Positions 4,799-28,581 of a stretch of 28,875 nt of DNA are shown here, piece by piece. Source of the DNA: a virus. Taxonomy: Duplodnaviria > Caudoviricetes. The position numbers and the translations under genes were made by a program. Position 1 is the stretch's first letter. Each line of letters begins with the position of its first letter. The stretch spans positions 1-28,875 of IMG/VR virus record IMGVR_UViG_3300010376_000673; one strand, given 5' to 3'. The notes beneath the pieces are model-generated. The model had not been told where the DNA came from, searched no databases, and worked only from the letters and a program-made list of their open reading frames with translations.

Positions 4799-4945
4799 TT
4801 AGGACTCCTCCTTTCCTTGGGATTGACGAACATCTTTCCGCCTGTCGTTATGGTCATCCCGGCCGGCCCGACATAGGCCCAGGAGCAGTAATCCAAACAT
4901 CGTTCCCACACTCAAGCAGAGAATCGTCCAGGGCAAATCCGTCAC
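4799..4945 (-). CDS. small single-TM protein (48 aa)
   Basis: GTG 4945 overlaps the upstream TGA (GTGA); WTILCLSVGTMFGLLLLGLC followed by a charged tail. Confidence 0.55.
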   Translation of the reverse strand: MTDLPWTILCLSVGTMFGLLLLGLCRAGRDDHNDRRKDVRQSQGKEES

Positions 4946-6906
4946 GGCCGGCGCCTCCGGTGCCACCATAGCCAGGCGCCGCTCGCCATCAAAATGGGCA
5001 ACCAGATCACTAAGCCCACAAGAATCACAATCTTCCATGTCCAGCCGTCCACGGCACGCTGCACGCATGGGCAGGGCTCAGGCTGCGGCGGGATGGGGAT
5101 CGCTTCTCCCAGCCGCGTCCAGAATGCGAACGTGGCGCCGTTCGAACCGGGGTCCACATTCCAGGTCGAGCCCCACACCAGCTGGGTGAAGTCGCGATTT
5201 ACCGCGGTGTGCGGCTCGGCGTTATAGTCCCCGTCACGAATCGCCATGGTACGCCCGATGCGCCAGAATTTTATATCGCTGTTATCGACGTCGCGCGCGT
5301 CAATCCGCACGGCGAAATTTTCCATGGCCCCAAAACCGGTATCGCCGCAGCTCAGGCAGCGCACATCGGCCGCGCTGGAATGCGCCGCCGCAAAGGTGGC
5401 CGTGGCCATCGAGCCTGTGGCCGCCGTCCAGGTCACCGATTCCATGGCGGGCTTGGCGTCCACCGTCGAAACTACGCCGGCCGCGATCTGCGCCATGCTC
5501 GCCGGCGTCACCGTGGCCTCGCCTGGCTGCACCGCCGTACCCAGCGCCGTACCGGGCGGATACTGCGGCGCCGTCCCATAGGCAGGCCCGGCCATAATCA
5601 TGGTGCTTACCAGGCCGTAGCCGGGCAGGTTCCAGGCGGTCATGGAGATGTGCGAGGCGCCATGCTTGCCGGTCAAGCTGGTGCCGCTGCAGCTGGGCTG
5701 GCGCGCGTAGCTGCAGGGCATCAGGTACCGCTTGTAGGTCTGGTGATCGGGCGCTACCTTGGTCAGATCCACTACCGAGATGGCGCGCTCGTCGTTGAGG
5801 TCGTTGCGATAGGACGCAATGCCCACGAATACCGGCACGCCGTTTATGTCATAGCCGTTGTCCTGGTGGCCGGGATAAGGCAGCGCCACGCCCAGATAGT
5901 TATAGTTCGGATCGAAGGCTTCCACGCCCAGGCCGCGGGTCCAGTTTGCATCCCGCGCGCCGCCCTGCCAGATGACGGTAATGAAGCGCGCGTCAGGATG
6001 CTGGTTCATCCTGAATAAATTGCGGCGCAGGCCGGTGGTCGCCCAGGTCCCGCAACCCGTGGGAACCTGCCCAGGACATACCTTGTACCACTTGTCCTGG
6101 TGCGTCACCTGGTCGCTCTGCCGGTCGTAGCGGATAAAGTCAATCTCATGCCGGCCGGTCCCATCCACCGCGTCGCAACTAAAACTAAAATAGCGGTCGG
6201 TCGCGTCGAACATGCCGCCCTGCGCGCCGGATCCCGTCTCGATCTGGTTGCCCGGCACGCCCGCGGGAATGTCGCCGCCCGTCGCATCGGACATACACGA
6301 AAAGGTATGAACTAAAGTCGAAACTAAACCGCAGGCCTGCGCCGTGCATGCGCTCACGTCCACAGAGCGCAGCTCCAGCCCGTGCCCGCTCGATCGGTTG
6401 GGCACATAAAAAATCTTGTGCGGGTCCGTATTCGACCACAGCACATCGAGCGATACCGGCAGCATCAGGCCCACATCGGGAGTAATGCGGTTGATGTATT
6501 TGGGCGGCGTCTGCGAGCTGTCGTAAAGAATTGCGTAGCCGGCATAGTCGGTTAAAAACATGCGGCTGCCATCTGTGTTCCAGGCCTGCACGCGCGAATA
6601 GGTGCTCATGGCTTCCTGATTGGTGAGCGGTGCCGCCAGGCGCCAGGTCGTCGTCCCAAACGTGGCATCGCTCCAGCTGGCGCCCACGGCCGGCAATGGC
6701 GGCATGGGCCAGGTGGCGCAGGGTACCGTGCCCCCACAGGTATAGTCATCCGGCGTAGTGTGCAACTTCTCAAACTGCGGCGGCACGGTCTGCGCCTGCA
6801 CCCAGAGGGGAACCGCTACCAGCAGGAGCAGGACTTTGTGCTGGTAGATCCAGTAGGATGTGCGCTCCAGCAGATCGTACAGCCAATACCACAATCGCCT
6901 TTTCAT
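4942..6906 (-). CDS. exported beta-propeller-like protein with C-terminal TM anchor (654 aa)
   Basis: N-terminal hydrophobic stretch ending VQA/Q; blade-like motifs YSRVQAWNTDGSRMFL and AEPHTAVNRDFTQLVWGSTW; many Cys pairs; Pro linker, TM helix and HRRRRP at the C-terminus. Confidence 0.7.
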   Translation of the reverse strand: MKRRLWYWLYDLLERTSYWIYQHKVLLLLVAVPLWVQAQTVPPQFEKLHTTPDDYTCGGTVPCATWPMPPLPAVGASWSDATFGTTTWRLAAPLTNQEAMSTYSRVQAWNTDGSRMFLTDYAGYAILYDSSQTPPKYINRITPDVGLMLPVSLDVLWSNTDPHKIFYVPNRSSGHGLELRSVDVSACTAQACGLVSTLVHTFSCMSDATGGDIPAGVPGNQIETGSGAQGGMFDATDRYFSFSCDAVDGTGRHEIDFIRYDRQSDQVTHQDKWYKVCPGQVPTGCGTWATTGLRRNLFRMNQHPDARFITVIWQGGARDANWTRGLGVEAFDPNYNYLGVALPYPGHQDNGYDINGVPVFVGIASYRNDLNDERAISVVDLTKVAPDHQTYKRYLMPCSYARQPSCSGTSLTGKHGASHISMTAWNLPGYGLVSTMIMAGPAYGTAPQYPPGTALGTAVQPGEATVTPASMAQIAAGVVSTVDAKPAMESVTWTAATGSMATATFAAAHSSAADVRCLSCGDTGFGAMENFAVRIDARDVDNSDIKFWRIGRTMAIRDGDYNAEPHTAVNRDFTQLVWGSTWNVDPGSNGATFAFWTRLGEAIPIPPQPEPCPCVQRAVDGWTWKIVILVGLVIWLPILMASGAWLWWHRRRRP

Positions 6907-7168: not shown

Positions 7169-9505
7169 TCAGTGATTCACCCAATTTGTTCCATTGCAAA
7201 ATACCGGCGTTACAGTGGATCCGCCGCCTGCCATCGTCGCCATATAAACCGGGGATGCCGCCCCGTCTGTGATAAAGGAATATGCCCCTCTGTTCGTCGC
7301 GTTGCAGGTAAGCGCCGATGTGAGAGTCGAAGCCGTGAATGCTGTGCCTTGCGGATTCTGTTGTATGACGCCATTTGCCGCGTTGATGCTCAGACTGTTT
7401 GTCGATGTGTTGCCGCTCTTGGTGTAAAACATGCTGCTGTTGTTAATGCTGCATTGTGCCGGCGATACGCCGCTATCACAGTAAAACGTGGGTATGCCCC
7501 CACTGGTGTCCACATCGAATCGCGCGTGGGTCGCGTCGAGTCCCTGAAAACGGAAAAAGCCAGCACCTAAGAAACGTCGCAAATCTGTGGATGGATCATA
7601 AGTTTCCGTATAGGTGCCGCCACTCACTGGTCTGTTGAGAGACAGTATCGTGAAAATTTGATTGGTAAGCGCTGAAAAGGTAGCAAAGACATTCGCCGCC
7701 CCCTGATCGGAAAAGACAGTGTAAGCAGAGAGCGTGGAGACCGCATGTTGGAACAGGATGCTAGCATTACCGGAAATAGCGATGGCCTGATTCCAAGGTC
7801 TGGAACCGCTTAACTGCGCAATCTGAAAACCCACATTCGTGCCGCCAGGAATGAAATGAGAGGTCACAGCTTTCCCACCCGTGGTAGAAAGAGCATTTCC
7901 TAACGGCATACGCATGGCATCGCCATTGTGAAACTGGGTTCCATCCGCGACCGTGACAGCTCCCGTTTTAGCGACTGCCGTAACCGTCGAACATTTGAAA
8001 AGTTTGTAGGTTCCGGTCGTCGCATCTCCGGCCCATGCTAAATTACCGTTCGAATTGCTGTTCAAGAGAGTGATCGAAGTATCGGAAACGATGCTGTTAA
8101 CCTTCAATACATATAAAAGCGAATTCGTGCCGTTACCGCTGTCCAATGAAAAGCACAGGTTCGATACGGACCCGCTTCCCAGTGAGGTCCACGTGGTCCC
8201 GCTTCCTGTGATAGTCGGCGGGGTTCCCGATATGGCTGTGATGGTGCCAGTGCTGTATACACCCGTGGTCTGATCAATAACTAATCTGCCCTCACCGCGC
8301 GCATACGGTTCGCTCGCGGATCCGCCCGTGTAATTGAGCACGTTGCCGGCGACGGTGCTTATGGTCGCGGAGAATTCCGAATCCGCGAGTGTGCCCTGAC
8401 CATTCCCCTGGTAGGCATATCCGGCGATGCCTATGTGTCCCTCGTCCCCTGCGGCATTGGTGTTGCCGAATCCGTATGAGTACCCGGCAATTCCGAATGT
8501 GTCTCCATCGCTGCCGTTGGTATCGAATCCGCAAATGCCGCAATGCTGGCCGGGAGTCCAACTGCGCACGCCCCATATAAAAGCATCAAAATTGGATTTG
8601 TGACTGGCTGTGTTCACTCCGCCTGTCACCGCATTTAATTGCACCTGGGAACCGTAATAAGTATCCTGATTCACTCCCACGGTGGGGTTAGAAATGACCA
8701 CTAAAGTAAACGGTCCCATATATCCCAGCCCGGTCGGGCCGCAAACAGGGTCCACCGCAAAAGCATTTTGAAAGCAGGAATTCCAGTAAACATTCCCGGT
8801 GTTGGTGGGAGGTTGCGTCATGCCAGCAGCGGATCCAGAAGCCGCGAAGCTCACCTTGGACGCGCCGATGCTTCCCGGAAAGGCTACCACCTGGCTGCTG
8901 CCCGATCCCGTATAGGTAATGCCATTCAGGTTAGATACTGCAATGCTCCCCGGAAACGCAACCGCCTGGCCACTCCCTGATCCGGTATAGGAAACACCAT
9001 TCACGCTAGGCACGGAAACCGCGCCCGAAGCTGTGAGATTCACCACGTTGCCGCTGCCGTCAAAGGTCAGCGACGGGGACGCGGCAAAGCCGCCCAGCCG
9101 GTTATATTGCATCTGCCCATTCGAGCCTGCCGGGTTTGCAGCCGTGCCGTTGGTCACGCACGCATTGAGCGCAGGACTATAAACCTGCGAGCCAGTGTTA
9201 CAAGTCACTGGCCAATTCAGCTGGGTACCAGGGGAAATGCTGGTCATCGAATACATGCAATTGTTGATGGAAGCATCGTAGACCATGCCCGCCGTGCAGC
9301 TGGCCGGCCAGCCCAGTTGGGTGCCGGGATTGATATTATTCAGATCCTGACACTGGTTGGTGGTCCAGTTATAAATTTTGCCGTCGCCAGTTCTGCAGTT
9401 CGCCGGCCAGCGGATCTGAGTGTGAGGGTTCACCTGGCCATGCGCGATCGCGCCGGCCGCCGCGACGAAAAGCAAAATTAAAACTTTAGAGAACGCAGAA
9501 CGCAT
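7169..9505 (-). CDS. tail fibre/receptor-binding-like protein with an N-terminal signal peptide (778 aa)
   Basis: G/S/T/N-rich; fibre-type motif PAGSNGQMQYN..GGFAASPSLTFD; fibre-tip-like C-terminus FITDG..AGGGSTVTPVFCNGTNW; located in the tail region; AT-richer distal part. Confidence 0.7.
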   Translation of the reverse strand: MRSAFSKVLILLFVAAAGAIAHGQVNPHTQIRWPANCRTGDGKIYNWTTNQCQDLNNINPGTQLGWPASCTAGMVYDASINNCMYSMTSISPGTQLNWPVTCNTGSQVYSPALNACVTNGTAANPAGSNGQMQYNRLGGFAASPSLTFDGSGNVVNLTASGAVSVPSVNGVSYTGSGSGQAVAFPGSIAVSNLNGITYTGSGSSQVVAFPGSIGASKVSFAASGSAAGMTQPPTNTGNVYWNSCFQNAFAVDPVCGPTGLGYMGPFTLVVISNPTVGVNQDTYYGSQVQLNAVTGGVNTASHKSNFDAFIWGVRSWTPGQHCGICGFDTNGSDGDTFGIAGYSYGFGNTNAAGDEGHIGIAGYAYQGNGQGTLADSEFSATISTVAGNVLNYTGGSASEPYARGEGRLVIDQTTGVYSTGTITAISGTPPTITGSGTTWTSLGSGSVSNLCFSLDSGNGTNSLLYVLKVNSIVSDTSITLLNSNSNGNLAWAGDATTGTYKLFKCSTVTAVAKTGAVTVADGTQFHNGDAMRMPLGNALSTTGGKAVTSHFIPGGTNVGFQIAQLSGSRPWNQAIAISGNASILFQHAVSTLSAYTVFSDQGAANVFATFSALTNQIFTILSLNRPVSGGTYTETYDPSTDLRRFLGAGFFRFQGLDATHARFDVDTSGGIPTFYCDSGVSPAQCSINNSSMFYTKSGNTSTNSLSINAANGVIQQNPQGTAFTASTLTSALTCNATNRGAYSFITDGAASPVYMATMAGGGSTVTPVFCNGTNWVNH
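8852..9001 (-). repeat. two 25-aa tandem repeats NG(V/I)(S/T)YTGSGS(G/S)Q(A/V)VAFPGSI
   Basis: aa 169-193 and 194-218 of the fibre-like protein. Confidence 0.85.
9155..9433 (-). repeat. three 32-33 aa repeats (V/I)(N/S)PxTQ(I/L)xWPxxC...Y.....NxC
   Basis: Visible in translation at aa 25, 58 and 90; two Cys per repeat. Confidence 0.85.
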
Positions 9506-10082: not shown

Positions 10083-10487
10083 CTACTTGTAAAACCACAC
10101 CGGCCCCACATGCGCCACGCGGGGATGATCTTCCGGCCGCAATAAAATCTCCTGCTTGAACCACTCCCCCAGCGGGCGGTTGGGCTCGCAGTAAAACAGG
10201 GCGCCCCCGGTCAGGTCGTTGGTATCGGCGCGGGTGTAAATCTCGTCAATGCGATTCAAGAGTACGCGCACATTGTTAGTGCGCAGGTCCGGCCGGGGAA
10301 GTGGATCCACGTTGGCCCGCTTGTCGCCGGCGCGCGTCACCACTTCCAGCCAGTCGCCCCAGCCGGCGAACACACGGTTGCGCAGCACATGCACCACGGC
10401 CAGCATATTGTTCACGCCGCCGTAGCCGGCGCCTTCCTCGATCGCGAAGCGCGCCATCTGTGCCCGTGTATAGGTTTCAATGGTCAT
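10083..10487 (-). CDS. SleB/CwlJ-like (Hydrolase_2) cell wall hydrolase, putative endolysin
   Basis: MARFAIEEG..MLAVVHVLRNRV helix with a candidate catalytic Glu, DLTGGALFY, and C-terminal VAHVGPVWFYK. Confidence 0.8.
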   Translation of the reverse strand: MTIETYTRAQMARFAIEEGAGYGGVNNMLAVVHVLRNRVFAGWGDWLEVVTRAGDKRANVDPLPRPDLRTNNVRVLLNRIDEIYTRADTNDLTGGALFYCEPNRPLGEWFKQEILLRPEDHPRVAHVGPVWFYK

Positions 10488-11326
10488 AGAGCTTTTCCCA
10501 CCCGTATCTGCCGGAAGGCCTGCAGCTGCTGGCGGTACCAGGCCGCGGGCTCGCCCTCGGCCGGCCCGAAGGCTTTGTCTACTTCCTCTTCGGTCAGAAT
10601 CTCGGCCACAATCAGCACCAGCATGGCGGTGCGCCAGCCGCGAAATTTCTCTTTGGTGGCCACGCCGCGGCCGTCAAAGCGCATGATCGACCATTCCGGC
10701 CCGTAGGGATCCTGCAGGCTGGTTAAGGTGCGCTGCACCTTGCGCCCCTCGCGCGCCGCCAGAAAGTTAGCGGTGAGCAGTTCTTTCTGGGCCTGGCTGG
10801 TCGCCTGGCTCAAGCTCATCAGGTAGCCTTCGTCGTCCATCTCCTGCGGCTTTACCCAGGCGTTTACTCCGACGAGGCCTGCGCGCGTCCAGTCATTCAG
10901 CCAGAGGCGCGCATGCGGGCTCTCCTGGTCGCGCGCGTCCACGCCGGCCGCCCGCAGCTTGCGCATGATGGCCGAGGGATGAAGGATGTTGACCAGGCGC
11001 GCCCGCTCGTTGTCCTTCCCTTCCCAGCGCGCTTGTCCCGGCAACTGCTGGGCGTGCGCCTTCATGCAATTCAACTCGTAGAGTTCCAGGCCTTCCTCTA
11101 CCCACTCGGCCGGCTGCAGCTCCATCTTTTCGATGTAGGCGCGCTGTTCGAGCAGTTCGAGCGCGGGATCGTGATGCTCGGGCGAATCAAACTCGGCATC
11201 GAAATCCTGGTTGCGCATTTGCCGGCGATTTTTAGTTTTTAGTTCCTCCACCTCGCGCGCCAGCACGGGATCAAATTCACACTTGGGCGCGCTCTGGTGC
11301 TGCAGGGGAATAATCACGTTGGGCAT
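10484..11326 (-). CDS. phage hypothetical protein (280 aa)
   Basis: Tightly packed ORF with GGAG SD and ATGA coupling to the hydrolase; no motif recognised. Confidence 0.75.
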   Translation of the reverse strand: MPNVIIPLQHQSAPKCEFDPVLAREVEELKTKNRRQMRNQDFDAEFDSPEHHDPALELLEQRAYIEKMELQPAEWVEEGLELYELNCMKAHAQQLPGQARWEGKDNERARLVNILHPSAIMRKLRAAGVDARDQESPHARLWLNDWTRAGLVGVNAWVKPQEMDDEGYLMSLSQATSQAQKELLTANFLAAREGRKVQRTLTSLQDPYGPEWSIMRFDGRGVATKEKFRGWRTAMLVLIVAEILTEEEVDKAFGPAEGEPAAWYRQQLQAFRQIRVGKAL

Positions 11327-15689: not shown

Positions 15690-16331
15690 TTATCCGCTCT
15701 TGAACGGCCCCACGTTGAGATTGCCGGCCGCCTGGCCTGCCACCCCGCCCAGCGCGCCTAGAATCGAGCCCCACATGGAATTCTGCTGCGCCGCGATGGT
15801 GTTTGCTTCGCTGGCCGCGGCGTTGCCGGCGCTCACCGTCGAGCCGGAAAAGGTGTTAGGGTTCCAGCCCGCCGCCAGGCCCTCTTCGCCGGTGATGGCC
15901 GTGCCCCACATCTGCCGGCCCAGGTCATAGCCGCTGGTAGTAATGCCCAGGTTTTCGCGCGCCGATTCCGCGGCCGTTTCGCTGGCCAATTGCTCTTGAA
16001 TGGCGGTGGATCCGCCGCTGGTCAGATTCACGCTGCCGGCGCCGGCGCCGCCCTGCGCGGCGATGCGCTGCTGCAAAGCCCGCTGGGCCGCGGTAAAGCC
16101 CTGCGTGGTACCCTCGCCGGCCTGTGTGCGCAGCGCCGTATCTTCGGCCGATGTGTAGCCATATTGCCCCGGCCCTTTGGCCAGGATGGGCGCGAACTGC
16201 GCATTCAACACCCCTTGAATCTCGGAAAAATTCTTGTAAGCGGTGTTGTAGGCGTTGATCTGGTTGCGGTAAAAATCTGCCTCTTCCGTCTGCAGCTCTC
16301 GCTGGGTATCCGATGGCCCGCCGCACATCAC
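15690..16331 (-). CDS. small internal virion (ejection/pilot) protein (213 aa)
   Basis: Starts M(M)CGG, A/Q/G-rich, C-terminal MWGSILGALGGVAG; position of T7 gp14/P22 gp7. Confidence 0.7.
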   Translation of the reverse strand: MMCGGPSDTQRELQTEEADFYRNQINAYNTAYKNFSEIQGVLNAQFAPILAKGPGQYGYTSAEDTALRTQAGEGTTQGFTAAQRALQQRIAAQGGAGAGSVNLTSGGSTAIQEQLASETAAESARENLGITTSGYDLGRQMWGTAITGEEGLAAGWNPNTFSGSTVSAGNAAASEANTIAAQQNSMWGSILGALGGVAGQAAGNLNVGPFKSG

Positions 16332-16801
16332 GCCACCTCCGTTTTCTTGGCCGGATCCGCGATGGCGCGCACCAGCTCGTGCGCGCTCTCCGTAAATCCC
16401 AGGCCTTTGATGGCTAAATGTTTTAGTTCTGGCGACACGGTATCAAAAATCCATTCTTCGCAACCGGCTTGAGACAGCGCGCTTTCCAAAAATGCCATCC
16501 CATGAAATAAGCCGCGCATGACGCGCCGGCGCTGTTCGTGCTCTGCCGCCTCGGGCGCGAACTGGATGCGCACGCGCGCCGCGCGGCTCAGGCGGATATA
16601 AAACACCACGCCCTTTTCGTCCTCTAATGCGTAGCAGCTCGGCCGCGAATCCCCGCCCAGCTTGTGACTCATAAAGAACTGCGGAGGGAAAATGCCGCGG
16701 TGCGCGTCGTCGGCCTCGATCCACTCACACAGCCGCTCCAGGTCGGCCAGCGTATCCACGCTGCGCAGTTTGAATCCATCGAATTCGCCAAAAATGCTCA
16801 T
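16328..16801 (-). CDS. GNAT-fold-like virion assembly protein (157 aa)
   Basis: Size, beta/alpha pattern and C-terminal HLAIKGLGF; sits between nozzle and ejection genes like T7 gp13/P22 gp14. Confidence 0.55.
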   Translation of the reverse strand: MSIFGEFDGFKLRSVDTLADLERLCEWIEADDAHRGIFPPQFFMSHKLGGDSRPSCYALEDEKGVVFYIRLSRAARVRIQFAPEAAEHEQRRRVMRGLFHGMAFLESALSQAGCEEWIFDTVSPELKHLAIKGLGFTESAHELVRAIADPAKKTEVA

Positions 16802-22457: not shown

Positions 22458-22839
22458 GTTCGTTGTCCTCTGCGGTTACCGGCGCATAGGTCACGCCATG
22501 CTGCCCGCTGCCGGTGGCCATCTGGATTTTCTGGTTAGGGCTCAGGCCTGCCGGCAGCTCGGGCACAGTAAAAGGCGCCTTGGTTTCGCGCGCGATGCGC
22601 GCATTTAGCTCATCCTGCTTTTTCGCTTCGGCGGCGGGATCCACTTCGACCGGGGTTAGTTTGCTGGTTTCGCGGCCGGCCGGATATGCCAGTTCTTCCG
22701 GCATGGCGCCCCCAGGGGCCGGCGTGTGCTGCTGCGGTCTGTTCTCAGTCATGGCTTGGCTCCTGTGGGGCTGCTCTGCGTCGCGCAGCTTGCGGCCCGG
22801 TTTGGCGGCGGGTTTTGGTTTCTTCTTAGGCGGCGGCAT
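22432..22839 (-). CDS. hypothetical low-complexity protein (~135 aa)
   Basis: Start MPPPKKKP behind GAGG (alternative MTENRP at 22752); contains PAGLSPNQKIQMA. Confidence 0.6.
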   Translation of the reverse strand: MPPPKKKPKPAAKPGRKLRDAEQPHRSQAMTENRPQQHTPAPGGAMPEELAYPAGRETSKLTPVEVDPAAEAKKQDELNARIARETKAPFTVPELPAGLSPNQKIQMATGSGQHGVTYAPVTAEDNEHDNDDDQT

Positions 22840-23290
22840 GGGCAACCTCAAACATCTTGCTGCCGCTGGGCGTGTTGTCGGAGGGGAAGCGGCTCCATTC
22901 GTTCCATTCCGCGGCCATCTTCGCGTACAGCTCGGGATCGGTCTTGCGCAGCGCCGCGGCCGGCCGCTCCACTTCCTTAAAGCAGCGGGTACACATGATG
23001 ACCTCGCGCCCTAGAGGGTAGGTGTTGCGGTTCACGCTATAGTTGGCGTCGTTGCCATCGCTGAAGCGATTGTTCTTTCCGCCCTTGCGGTGCTTGCACA
23101 CCCGCTGCCGGCGCAGCATTTCCGCCTGACCCTTTTTGTAGTCCTCCAGCTGCCGCGCGCGCGTGGCTTCCATGCGCTCGCGCCGATCCTTGCGGTCGGC
23201 CAGGCGTTCTTCAATTTCCGCGATCTGCACTTCTTTCCAACGCAGCTCAATAGCGTCGGCTTCGCTTTGCGAGTACTTCTCTTTGGGCAT
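22826..23290 (-). CDS. hypothetical coiled-coil plus CxH/CxxC Zn-binding protein (154 aa)
   Basis: GAGGA SD; charged helix, then CKH...CTRC; directly after the capsid gene. Confidence 0.75.
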   Translation of the reverse strand: MPKEKYSQSEADAIELRWKEVQIAEIEERLADRKDRRERMEATRARQLEDYKKGQAEMLRRQRVCKHRKGGKNNRFSDGNDANYSVNRNTYPLGREVIMCTRCFKEVERPAAALRKTDPELYAKMAAEWNEWSRFPSDNTPSGSKMFEVAHAAA

Positions 23291-23308
23291 GGCATTCCTC
23301 TCGCGCGT

Positions 23309-23337
23309 GCGGGGACCGGCCCCATTCCGGCCCCCGC
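23309..23337 (-). promoter_or_regulatory. GC-rich stem-loop after the capsid stop codon, without a U-tract
   Basis: GCGGGGGCCGG-N7-CCGGTCCCCGC, 11 bp with one G-U. Confidence 0.55.
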
Positions 23338-23345
23338 GTCATCGG

Positions 23346-24515
23346 TTAGGTGATGAGCGTAGGCGCGTCAATCATGCGCACGCGCGCCGTGGTGTCGGGC
23401 ACTACGCCGGTGGCGAAGTTGTAGTTATAGGCCGTCGAGCCCCCAATCATCATGGCCGGATCGGAAACGCTGGCATCGTCGTAGCGCTTGGTTATAGTTT
23501 TTAAGTTTCTCCAGTCGCCATCGCCTATCGCCGTGTTTTCCTTGGCGCCCATCGAAATGGTGATGAGCCCATCCTTGCCGTAGATGTAGGTTCGGAAGGC
23601 CGTGACGCCGCTGTGGGTCAGATAGTTGGGCGTCTGGGTCACGATCGAGGTTTCATACCAGCGCACCCCGGCCCACTCCATTACCTGCACATATTCGCCT
23701 TCGCCGCCCGGCAGCTCCTTGAGCAGCGCCGTGCCTTCCACACTGCGCTTCAGAACATCGGTCAGCGAATTGTTGGTGTTGTCGTTGAGCGCGTCGCCCC
23801 AGCAGAACGGGCAAATGAGCCCGCAGAACAGGCCTTCTTCCATAGGCCGCACATTGCGCTGCCGCAGGCTGGCCACGGCGGTGGTGATGTTGTTCTTGGC
23901 AAAGGGCACGTTGTAGGCATTCTGCTGCAGGGCGCTGGAATCCACGGTGGGAATGCCATCGGTCGTATTTTTAATCAAGTACGCGATGGTCAAAGCCGCC
24001 TGATATGCCAGCTCCTTGCTGCCGTTCTCTACGGCCGGATCAATCGCCAATTGCATGGAAAAGCGCGAATAATTCAGGTAATCCGCGTAGTTTCCGATGA
24101 CGATTTTATCGGTCAGCACAGAGATGGTTTCGCCGCTCTGCACCGTGCCCTCGGGCGCTTGTGAAAGGTCAGGCCCAAACGGGACATATTCAAACAGGTT
24201 GAGGATGTTGCCGCTGTTCTCGGGCAGCGGCCGGCGCTCCACACAGCGATAGTGCGGAGTTTCCGCTTTAAGGTTTTCGACGAAATTTTTGTCGTAGTAA
24301 TTGACCTGGGCTTGAATGAGGTTACTGGTCTGGTTGCTGGCCGGCGAGTAGCCGGCGCCAAGCCTGGCCTCGGTCGCAAGGGCATGGCCCTCGTTGCGAA
24401 TCAATAACCAGATGGCAGAGCCCAGCAAAGCCAGCGCATAGAGAAGAGGCTGCAACACATGGATGACCAGCCAGATTCTCCGCCGCGCAAACGTGGCGTC
24501 CCGCTCGATTTTCAT
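23346..24515 (-). CDS. major capsid protein (N4 gp56-like, HK97 fold) with a hydrophobic N-terminal leader
   Basis: Follows the scaffold; YYDKNFVENLK, RPLPENSGN, EGT..GETIS, NYADY, ELAYQAALT, LRQRNVRP, GVRWYETS, TYIYGKDG and SDPAMMIG fit the N4-gp56 family layout. Confidence 0.85.
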   Translation of the reverse strand: MKIERDATFARRRIWLVIHVLQPLLYALALLGSAIWLLIRNEGHALATEARLGAGYSPASNQTSNLIQAQVNYYDKNFVENLKAETPHYRCVERRPLPENSGNILNLFEYVPFGPDLSQAPEGTVQSGETISVLTDKIVIGNYADYLNYSRFSMQLAIDPAVENGSKELAYQAALTIAYLIKNTTDGIPTVDSSALQQNAYNVPFAKNNITTAVASLRQRNVRPMEEGLFCGLICPFCWGDALNDNTNNSLTDVLKRSVEGTALLKELPGGEGEYVQVMEWAGVRWYETSIVTQTPNYLTHSGVTAFRTYIYGKDGLITISMGAKENTAIGDGDWRNLKTITKRYDDASVSDPAMMIGGSTAYNYNFATGVVPDTTARVRMIDAPTLIT

Positions 24516-24518
24516 GGT

Positions 24519-24544
24519 GCCGCTCCCGTTCCCGCGGGAGGGGC
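24519..24544 (-). promoter_or_regulatory. hairpin covering the capsid Shine-Dalgarno
   Basis: 9-bp stem with one mismatch and a 6-nt loop; its 3' arm contains GGGAG upstream of ATG 24515. Confidence 0.5.
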
Positions 24545-24545
24545 T

Positions 24546-25361
24546 TTAGCTCACCTTGCGCGCTTTCGCCGCAGCATCCTGCCTGGCGTAATGATCCACG
24601 CACCGGCTCAGTTCTGGGTCGGTAGTCAGCAGGCGCTTATAGTTGGCTGCGCTCATGTTGGCAAGCTGCTCCCGCGAATACTTCAGCCGTGTGGTAGGCC
24701 TCGGCGCCGATCCGCTTATATCGCTCTGGCGGATCGAAGTCGAGAACCTGGTTGGAGTCGGCGGCGGCGTTGGCGTGGGAGCATTCCGCCCCTCATCCGC
24801 TGGCTCATCGGTAGTGGTGGTAGCTTCCGCGGGCCTGGCCTGCAGCAATTGGGCTGCGCTCAGGTCCTCGAAAGCCTGGGTATAGCTGGCCTCCCTGGTC
24901 GGGTCCAGTCCCTGCGTTTGCATGTACCGGACCAGGCGTTCCTTATTCCAGTCCGAAGGGTGCCACTCTGGAGTATGGTCCGCGAAGGCCTTCGCCGCAT
25001 CCACGGCCGCGCGGGTTTCGCGCTCGGCGCGCGATTCCTCGCGATCCTGGCGCAAATCGGCTACTGGGCCTACGACACTTTCTAAAACGCGGGTAATGCC
25101 TTTTTCAACCGTCGAAGGGTTGGCAAGATCGGCCACGGTCTGCATGCGCTGGGCGTCGGTCAGCGGCGCCGGCCGGCCGTTGCCGTGCCCGTTCACCGGG
25201 CGCAGCTCGTTGATGCGCCGGCTGGCGTGCATCTGCGAGTCGGCCATCTTGTCGGCAATCTCGTCTTTGGTGCCGCGGAAGGTAGAAATGATCATGCCGG
25301 TATCGTTGTCGGTCAGAATGAGTTTCCAGCGGCCGTTTCCCTGATCTTCCCAGCGCTTCAT
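24546..25361 (-). CDS. capsid scaffolding protein (271 aa)
   Basis: ATG 25361 behind GGAGG; helical body, Pro/Thr linker, C-terminal SREQLANMSAANYKRLL; directly upstream of the capsid gene. Confidence 0.75.
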   Translation of the reverse strand: MKRWEDQGNGRWKLILTDNDTGMIISTFRGTKDEIADKMADSQMHASRRINELRPVNGHGNGRPAPLTDAQRMQTVADLANPSTVEKGITRVLESVVGPVADLRQDREESRAERETRAAVDAAKAFADHTPEWHPSDWNKERLVRYMQTQGLDPTREASYTQAFEDLSAAQLLQARPAEATTTTDEPADEGRNAPTPTPPPTPTRFSTSIRQSDISGSAPRPTTRLKYSREQLANMSAANYKRLLTTDPELSRCVDHYARQDAAAKARKVS

Positions 25362-25429
25362 TTGCCCAGCCTCCGCGCGATACCGTCCAGTATCGCCCAC
25401 CCTAAAACTAAAAATTCTATAAACTTCAT
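25358..25429 (-). CDS. 23-aa hydrophobic micropeptide MKFIEFLVLGWAILDGIARRLGK
   Basis: GGAGG SD; ATGA overlap with the upstream stop (25426-25428) and with the scaffold start. Confidence 0.55.
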   Translation of the reverse strand: MKFIEFLVLGWAILDGIARRLGK

Positions 25430-25794
25430 GGCGCCGTCGCCTCCTGCTCGGGGAATCCTTCGACTCCCTGCAGCATCTCGTCCAGACTCGGCGGCGACTC
25501 CGGTTCTGTTTCTACCTCGCGGCTGTTGTAAGCATTTAACACCATGCGTTGAACATATTGGAAGAAAAGCCAGCTGCTTTTGGCCAGGATGTGACCACCC
25601 AGCACGGTTTCCACGTCGCCCACGGGGGTGTTGAAGTGCGCGGTTTCGAGTTCGATGCACACCCGCTCCATCACGTTGAGCAGCGCCGTGTAGCGCTCGT
25701 CCTGGTAGAGCTGCGCCAGTTGCCGCTTCTCTTCCTCCGAGATGACCAGCTCAGTGACTTTGAGCTTCCGGGTTGTGCGATGGCGAATTTCCAT
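25426..25794 (-). CDS. hypothetical helical protein between portal and scaffold (122 aa)
   Basis: Helical core with an acidic tail; position typical of small head-assembly proteins. Confidence 0.7.
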   Translation of the reverse strand: MEIRHRTTRKLKVTELVISEEEKRQLAQLYQDERYTALLNVMERVCIELETAHFNTPVGDVETVLGGHILAKSSWLFFQYVQRMVLNAYNSREVETEPESPPSLDEMLQGVEGFPEQEATAP

Positions 25795-25999: not shown

Positions 26000-26240
26000 G
26001 CTGTCGAGCCTGCTCGTCCTTCTCGATGGCCACTCTTCCTAAAAAGATCGCATCGCGCACCAGCCGCAAAGCCTGTTGCTGTTCCTCCGATACCGGTACC
26101 TGGGCCAGAATCGCATTCACGAAGGTGTACGCCGCGCGGCGCAATTCCCGGTAATTCAAAAACTGCACGCTGGCCAGGCCGGGTTCTCTGAAAAGCTCGT
26201 GCAGATTGTCTTTATGAATCAGGCCGGCGTCGGCGCCCAC
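25959..26240 (-). CDS. divergent Acb2/Tad1-like helical hairpin protein (~93 aa)
   Basis: LF..P....Q...Y.ELRRAA..F...I....P.S.EQ..ALR.VRDA.....AI spacing; start uncertain, GTG 26240 assumed. Confidence 0.55.
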   Translation of the reverse strand: MGADAGLIHKDNLHELFREPGLASVQFLNYRELRRAAYTFVNAILAQVPVSEEQQQALRLVRDAIFLGRVAIEKDEQARQHEWSSEWKPRANQ

Positions 26241-28366
26241 TCGCTTTGCTCGATCGCCGCCCGCTCCCACTTCCTCTCGTCCCACGCCGCCGCTTCGTCC
26301 GAGGCCTTGCCCAGCAAATCCTGGGCCAGCTTCGCCTCGTTGCTTTGGTCGATTTCCGCCGACTTTGCCTGATGCCGCGCGCCGATCGCGGCTATTTGTC
26401 CCTGCACCTTTTGCATGCCGGGGTTGCTTGCCTGGTAGCGCTGCCGCTCCTGCGCTGTCATGGGCCGGATTAACTCTCTCGCGTTTTTCCATTCGCTCAC
26501 TTCCATGAACATTTCGAGCAGCTGGCGCACGTCTACAATCCAGCCGATCGAGTTGAGTTGTTGAACCAAGGGGGCATTCTCAAAAATCTGGATCATCAAA
26601 GGCAAGGCCTGCGCCATGGCTTTCTTGGCCGCCAGGTGCGCGCCGGCCAAGCATTCAAAGCGGTCCTCGCTGTCGTAAAAGTTCTTGGCATCGAGTTCGA
26701 ACGCCGCGCCCAGCTCGCGGCCCAGGATGGCGCGGATCTGGCTCGGCGCCATGCGGGTTTTCACAAAGAATTCCAGCAGCTCGATGGTGGGCAGCAGAAT
26801 GCCTTTTACGAAATGGCCCACAGGCCCCTGAATCTTACCGGCATTCGCCGCGATAATCCCGCCCGCGCCCGTGGCCGTGCGCGCCGCGCTCGATCCGCCG
26901 CGCGGCGGCAAACTGCCCTGCGTAAACGCTTGATCCGCGCCCGAGGTAGACTCCGCATCCTGGATGGCTCCCTGTAACAGAGTGAAGGCCTCGCCGGGGA
27001 CCTTGGGCAGCTCGATGATCCCGAAAACATCTTTCACGCTCTGGCCGGGCCTGGTGTCTACGTCGATGATGCCGCCGAGTCTTTGCCGTATCTGCTGGGT
27101 GGGCGCATTGGCGCCGCGGTCGCGAACATACATCTGATTCACGGCCATACTAAGCAGGTCCAGGCAGGCATCATAAATTCCTTTTTCGATGCGCTGCGAA
27201 GATCCACTCAAGCGGCCGATCCCCAAACCATAGCCGGCGTTGGGGATGTTCCAAAAATTTGCCGACAGGTAGGGCAGAAATGGCAGCTCGTGCTTTTCCT
27301 TACGAATCAGAACCCCGCGGTCGCCGCCCTCGGGAACTAAAACCGTATAGATCCAGGCATTGTCATGGCGCTCGAAACACTGGATCGGCCGTTCCAGCGG
27401 ATCCGCGCTGGCCGGCTCGTCGGGATTCTGGGCATGATGAATGCTCCAGTTCTGGCCGCCCAGATTCAGCTGCACCTGGCTGGGTGCGCCGGCATTGCCT
27501 TCGTGGGCAAAAAAGTAAGCCTTTAGATCCTCTTCGGGGGGAATGTCGTAGCCGCCCACCTGGTTGCCTTTGTCGTCCTGGATGATGGGCTGATTGCGCC
27601 AGCCCTCCAGGTCGGCATAGGTGGGATAGGTGATATGCACCACATACTTGGCGCCGGTATGCAAAGCGTTGGCTGTGTTCCAGGTCGGATCCACCAGCAG
27701 CGCGCCCAGCTCGCACATCTCGAAGGTCAGGCCCTCTTCCACGACTTCCGAGTCCTTGACAATCAGCTCGTCCGATTCCTTGGTGTGTACCGTCAGCTCG
27801 CCGCCCAGCGGCAGCTGCATCTTGATGGGCGCGGCTTTGGGCGCGCGCATCTTGCGGATCTTGGTATCGCGCCGCCAGCCCACTTTCACAACCACGGTTC
27901 CGAATGTGGTCATGCTTTCCAAGGCGCGTTCGCTCACGTCCTCGAATTTGCACTCGTCCAGTAAGGCCCCATAGAGCGCGGTCTTAGCGCGCGCCGTGCT
28001 CTGCGATGTGGCCGGCCGCGGGCGGACTAAAAACGGCGGCATCTCATAAAAAATGCCCGACTTCATGCCGGGCACTAAGCTGTTCACGTGTTTGGCAACG
28101 GTGAAGCGGGAGATGTTGGCCTTGGCGACGGTCGAGCCTTCGAAGGATGAATTGGTGCGCGGGGACTGGAAAAGCACGTCCGACTCGCGCCAGTGGAGGT
28201 TCCATTGTTTCTGGTCCAGGTAGGTGCGGGCGCGCTGCGCGTCTTGAATGGTCAGCTGTACCGCGGCGTCGTCGGTATATTTGGGATCCAGCAGCGGGCC
28301 GGCTGTTTGCACATCGCCGGCCTCGATCCGCTGGCTGCCTCTCACCATCCCCGGAAGCGTGGCCAT
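26219..28366 (-). CDS. portal protein (podovirus type, 715 aa)
   Basis: ATG 28366 behind GAGGT; FGTVVVKVGW, LPFLPY..IPNAGYGLGIGRL, RTATGA motif and Q-rich helical C-terminus; upstream of scaffold and capsid. Confidence 0.9.
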   Translation of the reverse strand: MATLPGMVRGSQRIEAGDVQTAGPLLDPKYTDDAAVQLTIQDAQRARTYLDQKQWNLHWRESDVLFQSPRTNSSFEGSTVAKANISRFTVAKHVNSLVPGMKSGIFYEMPPFLVRPRPATSQSTARAKTALYGALLDECKFEDVSERALESMTTFGTVVVKVGWRRDTKIRKMRAPKAAPIKMQLPLGGELTVHTKESDELIVKDSEVVEEGLTFEMCELGALLVDPTWNTANALHTGAKYVVHITYPTYADLEGWRNQPIIQDDKGNQVGGYDIPPEEDLKAYFFAHEGNAGAPSQVQLNLGGQNWSIHHAQNPDEPASADPLERPIQCFERHDNAWIYTVLVPEGGDRGVLIRKEKHELPFLPYLSANFWNIPNAGYGLGIGRLSGSSQRIEKGIYDACLDLLSMAVNQMYVRDRGANAPTQQIRQRLGGIIDVDTRPGQSVKDVFGIIELPKVPGEAFTLLQGAIQDAESTSGADQAFTQGSLPPRGGSSAARTATGAGGIIAANAGKIQGPVGHFVKGILLPTIELLEFFVKTRMAPSQIRAILGRELGAAFELDAKNFYDSEDRFECLAGAHLAAKKAMAQALPLMIQIFENAPLVQQLNSIGWIVDVRQLLEMFMEVSEWKNARELIRPMTAQERQRYQASNPGMQKVQGQIAAIGARHQAKSAEIDQSNEAKLAQDLLGKASDEAAAWDERKWERAAIEQSEWAPTPA

Positions 28367-28371
28367 AGTAT

Positions 28372-28581
28372 TTATACCTCGCCTTGCTTGAACGCCCGTT
28401 CGATCGAATCTGCCACTTGGCGCAAAATGCTGGGTAAAGCTACGGTCGCTTCGGCGGAGGCCTGCACGGAAAATCCATTCCCGAATTGTCCATGAATCAC
28501 AATGAGCATGGCGCCTTCGGCTTTCGCAGCTTCGCGGGCGATGGTGCATAGTTGGTCGTATTTGCCCGGTCCTAGTGGCAT
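28372..28581 (-). CDS. small phage hypothetical protein (69 aa, MPLGPGKYD...)
   Basis: TGATG overlap with the upstream gene; GAGGA SD. Confidence 0.7.
   Translation of the reverse strand: MPLGPGKYDQLCTIAREAAKAEGAMLIVIHGQFGNGFSVQASAEATVALPSILRQVADSIERAFKQGEV

Follow-up and report, generated by a model that had tools for sequence, protein, structure and literature searches.

The major capsid gene and its neighborhood

The window analyzed here, a 28,875-nucleotide stretch of tailed phage DNA, carries on its minus strand a 389-aa ORF (23346-24515 (-), as translated from the window) composed of a 54-aa N-terminal leader (24354..24515 (-), 54 codons from ATG 24515) and a 335-aa core (23346..24353 (-)). 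A Shine-Dalgarno (SD)-like GGGAG (24523..24527 (-)) is located 7 nt before ATG 24515, and the stop codon of the preceding gene lies 30 nt upstream of this ATG. A preliminary description of the locus had placed a leader of about 54 aa at 24354-24515 (-), correctly in both coordinates and sequence, and had assigned the GGGAG to ATG 24515, where we also find it. It had further stated that no in-frame ATG separates the leader from the capsid domain, that ATG 24385 is out of frame, and that the in-frame TTG and GTG codons lack an obvious SD. No in-frame ATG was found in the leader, ATG 24385 opens another frame, and the four in-frame TTG/GTG codons, situated 17, 25, 34, and 35 codons before G55, are all without an SD.

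Residues 59-225 of the protein match phrog_1357, major head protein (E 8.7e-10). The protein scores 32.9 bits, and four homologs 27-47 bits, against TIGR04387 (N4-gp56 family), which has a curated cut-off of 60; formal membership of that family was therefore rejected, and the protein is a distant relative instead. A sequence search of the PDB gave no matches. An AlphaFold2 model built from 104 sequences (pLDDT 77, pTM 0.68) matched 290 PDB chains at E ≤ 0.001 in Foldseek, the best of which are the capsids of Pan3, A4, GP4, and N4, with the HK97 capsid also among the matches. By the phrog_1357 match and the modeled fold, the ORF at 23346-24515 (-) is an HK97-fold major capsid protein, as had been proposed.

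The capsid gene lies behind the genes for the portal protein (26219..28549 (-); PF23899, E 3.6e-12; phrog_1216), a conserved helical protein of 122 aa (25426..25794 (-)) that matches no protease family, and a scaffold-like protein (24546..25361 (-)), in that order. The scaffold-like gene matches no family and was assigned from its position and the helical C-terminal tip of its product, which is itself without a hydrophobic leader. The capsid gene is followed by a conserved 154-aa protein (22826..23290 (-)) that contains a 57-aa helix and a C/H/C/C motif; C65, H67, C100, and C103 (C-x-H...C-x-x-C) are invariant in 39 aligned sequences, from which this neighbor is likely to be zinc-binding. Fold searches with it returned coiled coils or nothing significant, and no protease match. 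The phage, an uncultured one from soil, is likely a podovirus of Acidobacteriota, a host assigned because all eight genome-collection matches sit in Acidobacteriota MAGs, where binned contigs can mislead, and because the closest isolate, Tunturi 3, whose capsid protein is 42% identical, is a podovirus that infects Tunturiibacter.

Several other genes of the window and its relatives deserve mention in their own right. A highly conserved 280-aa protein with invariant W/R/E/G-rich positions and no assigned family (10484-11326 (-)) is encoded in 15/15 related records, and a search for a protease identity for it gave nothing usable. At 15690-16801 (-), a gene for 157 aa precedes one for a 213-aa Ala/Gly-rich product that begins M-C-G; neither has a family match, and we take the arrangement to resemble podovirus ejection modules. 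Large, Cys-rich, fibre-like proteins (7169-9505 (-) and 4942-6906 (-)) have classic Sec-type signal peptides, and one such gene follows a conserved 134-aa or 195-aa gene in 12/15 related records (by eye), both leader-bearing and leaderless; such appendages of the virion may undergo export and periplasmic oxidation. In one relative, a 104-aa ORF between TerL and the portal gene (L028:1975-2289 (+)) encodes a textbook Tat-type signal, a short conserved motif, and a piece of the capsid N-terminal region; its front part is common to 12 relatives, and four others also end in capsid-like pieces (by eye). A leader-bearing relative encodes an Acb2/Tad1-like anti-defence protein (L219:18357-18575 (-); PF24729, E 1.2e-10).

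The leader is a genuine coding sequence present in many related loci

Related loci were drawn from four collections and duplicates were collapsed; 11 loci with an uncovered N-terminus and 5 that were truncated or ambiguous were left out, and an SD rule decided the start codons, apart from a few that were assigned manually. This left 98 distinct loci checked at the DNA level: in 63 the capsid protein has a hydrophobic leader of 46-86 aa, and in the other 35 it begins at the junction of leader and core. The two sets have the same head module. Among well-covered loci, the scaffold-like gene is present in 43/43 leader-bearing and 18/18 leaderless ones, the 122-aa protein in 41/43 and 17/18, and TerL in 43/43 and 17/18, and no gene of the head module co-occurs with the leader. 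The distance of the capsid gene behind the scaffold-like gene is also similar (median 32 nt in 61 leader-bearing vs 37 nt in 32 leaderless loci), and some relatives more than 80% identical in the core are without the leader, their gene content being unchanged.

An SD-like word precedes the ATG in 61/63 leader-bearing and 28/35 leaderless loci. It could be argued that the leader is a mis-called extension, with the true start hidden near the junction and the upstream DNA kept for an RNA role, and 25/63 leader-bearing loci do have a GTG or TTG in frame no more than five codons from the junction. None of these codons is SD-backed, however, and neither an ATG nor an SD-backed GTG/TTG occurs within ±5 codons of the junction in any of the 63 loci. 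The mRNA of the leader is slightly better folded than its codon-shuffled versions (mean z -1.29), but so, to an equal extent, is that of the first core segment (z -1.31), and a leader-specific RNA structure was rejected on these values. The codon at position -3 of the junction varies over 11 triplets, and base conservation by codon position in the leader is 0.73/0.83/0.59 (24 group-1 loci; groups are described below). We also rejected a start concealed by sequencing error, given the missing ATG or SD-backed start, the varied -3 codons, and the agreement at every base over 23300-24800 with contigs from a single public run, although the window may itself derive from that run, which is therefore not independent. 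We regard the mis-called extension as almost certainly wrong. The preliminary description had named homologs starting at or near GYSPAS as evidence that would count against the leader; such starts do occur, in the 35 leaderless loci, and they are natural leaderless forms, not mis-called starts.

The 54-aa leader is thus a genuine, hydrophobic coding sequence under selection. Uncorrected pN/pS is 0.50 for the leader and 0.13 for the core (24 group-1 loci), which indicates that the leader is constrained, yet faster-evolving than the core; median identity is 45% for the leader vs 81% for the core (66 proteins).

Leader anatomy

The 134 distinct leaders form groups of 72, 26, 15, and 9, plus 12 others. 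The leaders were scored on hydropathy, insertion, Eisenberg, and volume scales; the best 19-aa Kyte-Doolittle (KD) mean is 1.93 in the window leader, compared with a maximum of 1.42 in 111 capsid cores; the core of the window protein has no apolar segment (KD 0.97). Hydrophobicity of the leader in homologs had been named as a check in the preliminary description, and 123/134 distinct leaders reach KD ≥1.6. In the window leader, residues 14-39 form an uncharged run of 26 aa.

From the alignments, the leader can be divided into three predicted helices. Helix A (residues 8-22; 24450..24494 (-)) is basic and amphipathic, with about three K/R and a conserved hydrophobic face (F in 71/72 and W in 67/72 group-1 leaders). 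It is followed by Pro23 (24447..24449 (-)), a likely kink, kept in 72/72 group-1, 26/26 group-5, and 9/9 group-3 leaders, although groups 1 and 5 were defined by a Pro-containing pattern and their counts are partly circular. The distance from this Pro to the junction is 32 aa in 68/72 leaders of the window's group. Helix B (residues 24-39; 24399..24446 (-)) consists of 16 apolar residues with a conserved small/polar stripe formed by Y26, A29, G32, and S33, and K/R/D/E are absent from it in 75 group-1 leaders. Its variable face coincides with its bulky face, at an angle of 6 degrees in the 75 group-1 and 17 degrees in 26 group-5 leaders, the pattern expected of a lipid-facing helix. Helix C (residues 40-51; 24363..24398 (-)) begins with R-x-E-G (R/K-x-E-G in the window's group) and continues as an Ala-rich amphipathic stretch, with E in 66/72 and the A49 equivalent in 69/72 group-1 leaders, and it also contains A-x-A-type sites, at background level; in the flanking helices A and C alike, it is the hydrophobic face that is conserved.

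Whether helix B spans the membrane is a marginal case on sequence grounds, because the apolar stretch after the Pro is short (16-17 aa), because crude insertion sums on the Hessa scale are +0.07 for 17 aa and +1.88 for 19 aa, and because group-5 leaders have a Glu inside the apolar segment (25/26; KD <1.6 in 5/26). AlphaFold draws residues 7-48 as one long helix (pLDDT about 90 for residues 11-40), followed by a low-confidence linker. Pfam searches with 26 leaders gave weak matches only, and between-group leader profiles score only a few bits above shuffles; judged from these sequences, a common origin of the leader groups is plausible.

Origin and loss of the leader

When 1.84 billion representatives were searched with a profile, 870 matched; among the 150 matches listed, 110 had the N-terminus covered. 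Of these 110, 93 start at the junction, 13 have extensions of at least 40 aa, all hydrophobic (KD 1.41-2.56), and four have 13-39 extra residues, one of them of Prp type. Since 93/110 of these distant relatives start at the junction, the junction is the native N-terminus of the family, and the leader an add-on. The Prp-type leader, on the distant capsid relative P0282, shows that the wider family has acquired leaders of different kinds.

In a tree of 91 loci the leader state changes at least nine times, five of these changes being forced by strong branches, and the capsid and portal trees both nest the leaderless loci of groups 1-3 among loci that have the leader. A single origin of all seven of these leaderless loci was rejected by the AU test (p-AU 1.6e-5), and the six leaderless group-1 loci as one clade were not (p-AU 0.36). 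Two independent losses of the leader are therefore firm, further losses appear likely from the trees, and a claim of many losses in group 1 goes beyond the one loss that the AU test supports. Any deletion that left the core intact would likewise appear as an exact loss at the junction. A leader search in 201 genomes gave one strong score, the prophage copy, with 14 others at E 0.003-0.04, and the ESM Atlas gave no usable leader match.

The junction and candidate proteases

The junction (L52-G53-A54-G55; 24351..24362 (-)) emerges as a putative processing region from the profile of the 134 leaders. Position -3 is hydrophobic in 132/134, across groups that are otherwise barely alignable, position -2 is small or Asn in 129/134, and position -1 is A/V/T/D/I/S across leader groups. 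In leaderless forms the initiating Met lies 1-3 residues before the junction G, so that the junction is where relatives without the leader naturally begin, in keeping with removal of the leader. As a sequence motif the junction is loose and fits none of the proteases tested in full.

The preliminary description had recognized no prohead protease in the window, and our searches agree: none was recognized among 24 window ORFs, 149 proteins of 15 records, related near-whole records included, and 30 core proteins, a set in which several core genes are without a family and record completeness is uncertain. The only peptidase-like Pfam match was to an ArdC-type zincin, whose cluster is present in 4/15 records. 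Ten related records (G010-G019, from L193-L220) are 38.7-43.9 kb long and are rated about 43% complete by CheckV. They share one or both end genes (an AAA ATPase at one end, DUF1376 or its neighbor at the other) and are without terminal repeats, and some have ParA or a Rep3 initiator; they may be whole genomes, possibly linear plasmid-like prophages.

Prp (PF04327) was found in 0/151 genomes of the presumed host phylum and in 0/5 genomes of a smaller set, with the control positive in 3/14, and the Prp motif MLxx(D/N)LQ(F/L)F'A is absent from the junction profile and from the group alignments of the 134 leaders. No phage rhomboid over the cut-off was found by the head genes in 33 records, most of which are possibly incomplete. 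Rhomboids are encoded in 56/61 genomes of the host phylum, a tally that includes the unpublished G045 and G070, both of which may also be in the 201- and 151-genome samples. We consider cleavage of the leader by a host protease likely.

Membrane topology and alternative explanations

By the positive-inside rule, the K/R-rich flank of a membrane helix stays cytoplasmic. The N-terminal flank carries more K/R than the C-terminal flank in 75/75 group-1 and 25/26 group-5 leaders. By this rule a spanning helix would be N-in/C-out and would place the capsid domain in the periplasm, and we doubt a simple spanning anchor because it would export that domain. As a rule, no N-terminal signal was found on the portal, scaffold-like, and tail proteins or the terminase, and the head should therefore be built in the cytoplasm. 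The charge bias and the partners without signals together lead us to prefer a kinked, one-sided anchor with both ends cytoplasmic.

Our best explanation, to which we assign a probability of roughly 45%, is that the leader is a kinked, one-sided membrane propeptide on the cytoplasmic face of the inner membrane and that a protease of the host removes it at the junction. Helix A would rest on the membrane surface, Pro23 would bend the chain, helix B would dip into the bilayer, and helix C would come back to the cytoplasm, so that new subunits would be held and concentrated at the membrane beside the scaffold and portal until cleavage. A cut in the phi-x-x-G stretch would yield a mature protein starting x-G-Y-S-P or G-Y-S-P. 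The leader step is optional at the lineage level, because close relatives build heads from leaderless protein. This explanation is supported by the leader ending where leaderless relatives begin, by the lack of any head-module gene that tracks the leader, and by a helix B that is apolar all round with a bulky variable face between amphipathic helices. It is weakened by the charge bias, which suits N-in/C-out spanning better than a loop, by the unbroken 7-48 helix, not a hairpin, drawn by AlphaFold, and by the loose junction motif, the Glu in helix B of group 5, and the weak homology between groups.

The single long helix would also fit a soluble helper resembling a delta domain, in which case the leaders would bundle inside the procapsid with their apolar helices buried and would steer capsomer or shell geometry before being cut or kept; HK97 and T5 use N-terminal helical domains in this way (PMC3185693), and the transmembrane score is marginal, with Glu and Gln in the group-5 segment. 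We nevertheless consider this unlikely, as helix B lacks a charged face in the 75 group-1 leaders, the face that varies is the bulky apolar one, contrary to what a buried soluble helix would show, and all well-covered loci have a separate scaffold-like gene. The charge bias itself would fit a signal anchor or true signal peptide with N-in/C-out orientation; the capsid protein would then be exported, wholly or in part, and cut on the periplasmic side by signal peptidase I or a host rhomboid. Signal peptidase I cuts at a (-3,-1) small-residue site close after the h-region. The leaders do have a basic n-region, an apolar h-region, and an Ala-rich C side; 67/75 leaders of group 1 contain an A-x-A-type site, 26/26 of group 5 have a (-3,-1) site positioned at the junction, and classic signal peptides occur on the fibre-like proteins of these phages. 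However, A-x-A-type/(-3,-1) sites, found in 131/134 leader ends, are also found in 95% of shuffled ones, which puts them at background level. A Tat signal was rejected, the twin arginine not being near-invariant: it occurs at the aligned site in 46/75 group-1 leaders, and a Tat-like pattern in 36/75 leaders of group 1, 0/15 of group 2, 0/9 of group 3, 0/26 of group 5, and 1/9 others. Rhomboid substrates have a large hydrophobic P4, a small P1, and a hydrophobic P2' (PMC2941825). A cut after the junction Gly would give a hydrophobic P4 and P1 Gly in 132/134 leaders, P1 being circular as the Gly was chosen as the anchor, and such an enzyme is available in 56/61 host-phylum genomes; P2', however, is Ser in 134/134 and hydrophobic in none, although GlpG is able to cut at a suboptimal P2' (PMC2941825). 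With no second start that would supply a cytoplasmic pool, and with portal, scaffold-like protein, and terminase lacking signals as a rule, export is distinctly unlikely.

The small/polar stripe on helix B, similar to those of self-packing membrane helices, and the patchy distribution on the tree (nine changes, five forced) would suit a cut-off leader with a membrane job of its own, for instance in timing lysis, excluding superinfection, or concealing the capsid protein from a host sensor, and it would be made one-to-one with the capsid protein. No free-standing homolog exists among 658 candidates of 25-98 aa, the one match being a truncated capsid gene; leader-bearing genomes already own holin-like genes, which leaves a role as holin substitute unsupported, and leaderless genomes share no substitute, all of which makes such a job improbable. 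Slimmer still is the chance that the leader is never removed and, staying on all subunits, holds a lipid layer inside or against the HK97-fold head. The failure to find a protease, and a junction that no family motif fully fits, would be explained, but relatives more than 80% identical in the core are leaderless with the same gene content, and the isolated relative Tunturi 3 is a leaderless podovirus.

Relation to known systems and significance

HK97-fold capsid proteins are treated as soluble and cytoplasmic, and membrane-linked assembly is established mainly for T4, via the portal. The delta domains of HK97 and T5 and the propeptide of T4 gp23 are soluble and charged. The leader shares with these a helical N-terminal piece before the HK97 fold that is likely removed (PMC3185693). 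It differs in that all of those pieces are cut by a phage-encoded protease and the delta domain of HK97 and T5 replaces the scaffold (PMC3185693), whereas here there is a scaffold-like gene, the piece is apolar, and our searches recognized no phage protease; assignment to the delta domain class was rejected for the 26-aa uncharged run and the scaffold-like gene, itself assigned by position and helical tip. T4 proheads start on the inner membrane, anchored via a separate membrane protein acting on the portal, and a 2011 review describes membrane association as unproven for phages other than T4 (PMC3185693). The likeness to T4 is thus membrane-linked head assembly in a tailed phage, the difference being that here each capsid subunit, not the portal, would bear the anchor (PMC3185693). 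The pVIII procoat of filamentous phages is likewise the membrane precursor of a major coat protein and is cleaved by the leader peptidase of the host, but its fold is unrelated, mature pVIII spans the membrane, and the virion is extruded, whereas the HK97 core here has no apolar segment (PMC3185693, for pVIII). In the staphylococcal phage 80alpha, host Prp cuts leaders from capsid and scaffold proteins (PMC9261936). That system resembles the present one in its N-terminal capsid leader, the lack of a protease of its own, and the host protease invoked; it differs in that the Prp motif is short and without a membrane segment, and here the motif is absent and the scaffold-like protein leaderless (PMC9261936).

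Tunturi 3 gp6 (PP885686), from an Acidobacteriota podovirus, is the 42% identical capsid protein and has the same gene order (PMC11924767). It differs in that it starts at the junction, with in-frame stops upstream, and the Tunturi 3 genome, at 97.6 kb, is larger than the longest records with the leader (about 39-45 kb). Precedents exist for capsid propeptides that are cleaved, for leaders cut by the host, for T4 heads initiated at the membrane, and for the procoat leaders of filamentous phages (PMC9261936, PMC3185693). A literature search by title and start of abstract, with subscription journals thinly covered, found no description of a membrane-type leader on an HK97-fold capsid protein.

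A tentative and somewhat doubtful extension is a head-assembly route in which each HK97-fold subunit would be born as an inner-membrane protein and procapsids would form on the membrane from tethered subunits. A protease of the host acting on the membrane side and reading phi-x-x-G would release them or, without a cut, they would give a lipid-lined head, the whole module being toggled as the leader is gained or cleanly lost. Capsid proteins more than 80% identical occur in this clade with and without the leader among the same neighbors, which provides a natural experiment. If the membrane propeptide reading is true, a widespread clade of soil phages would add a membrane step and a host protease to head assembly.
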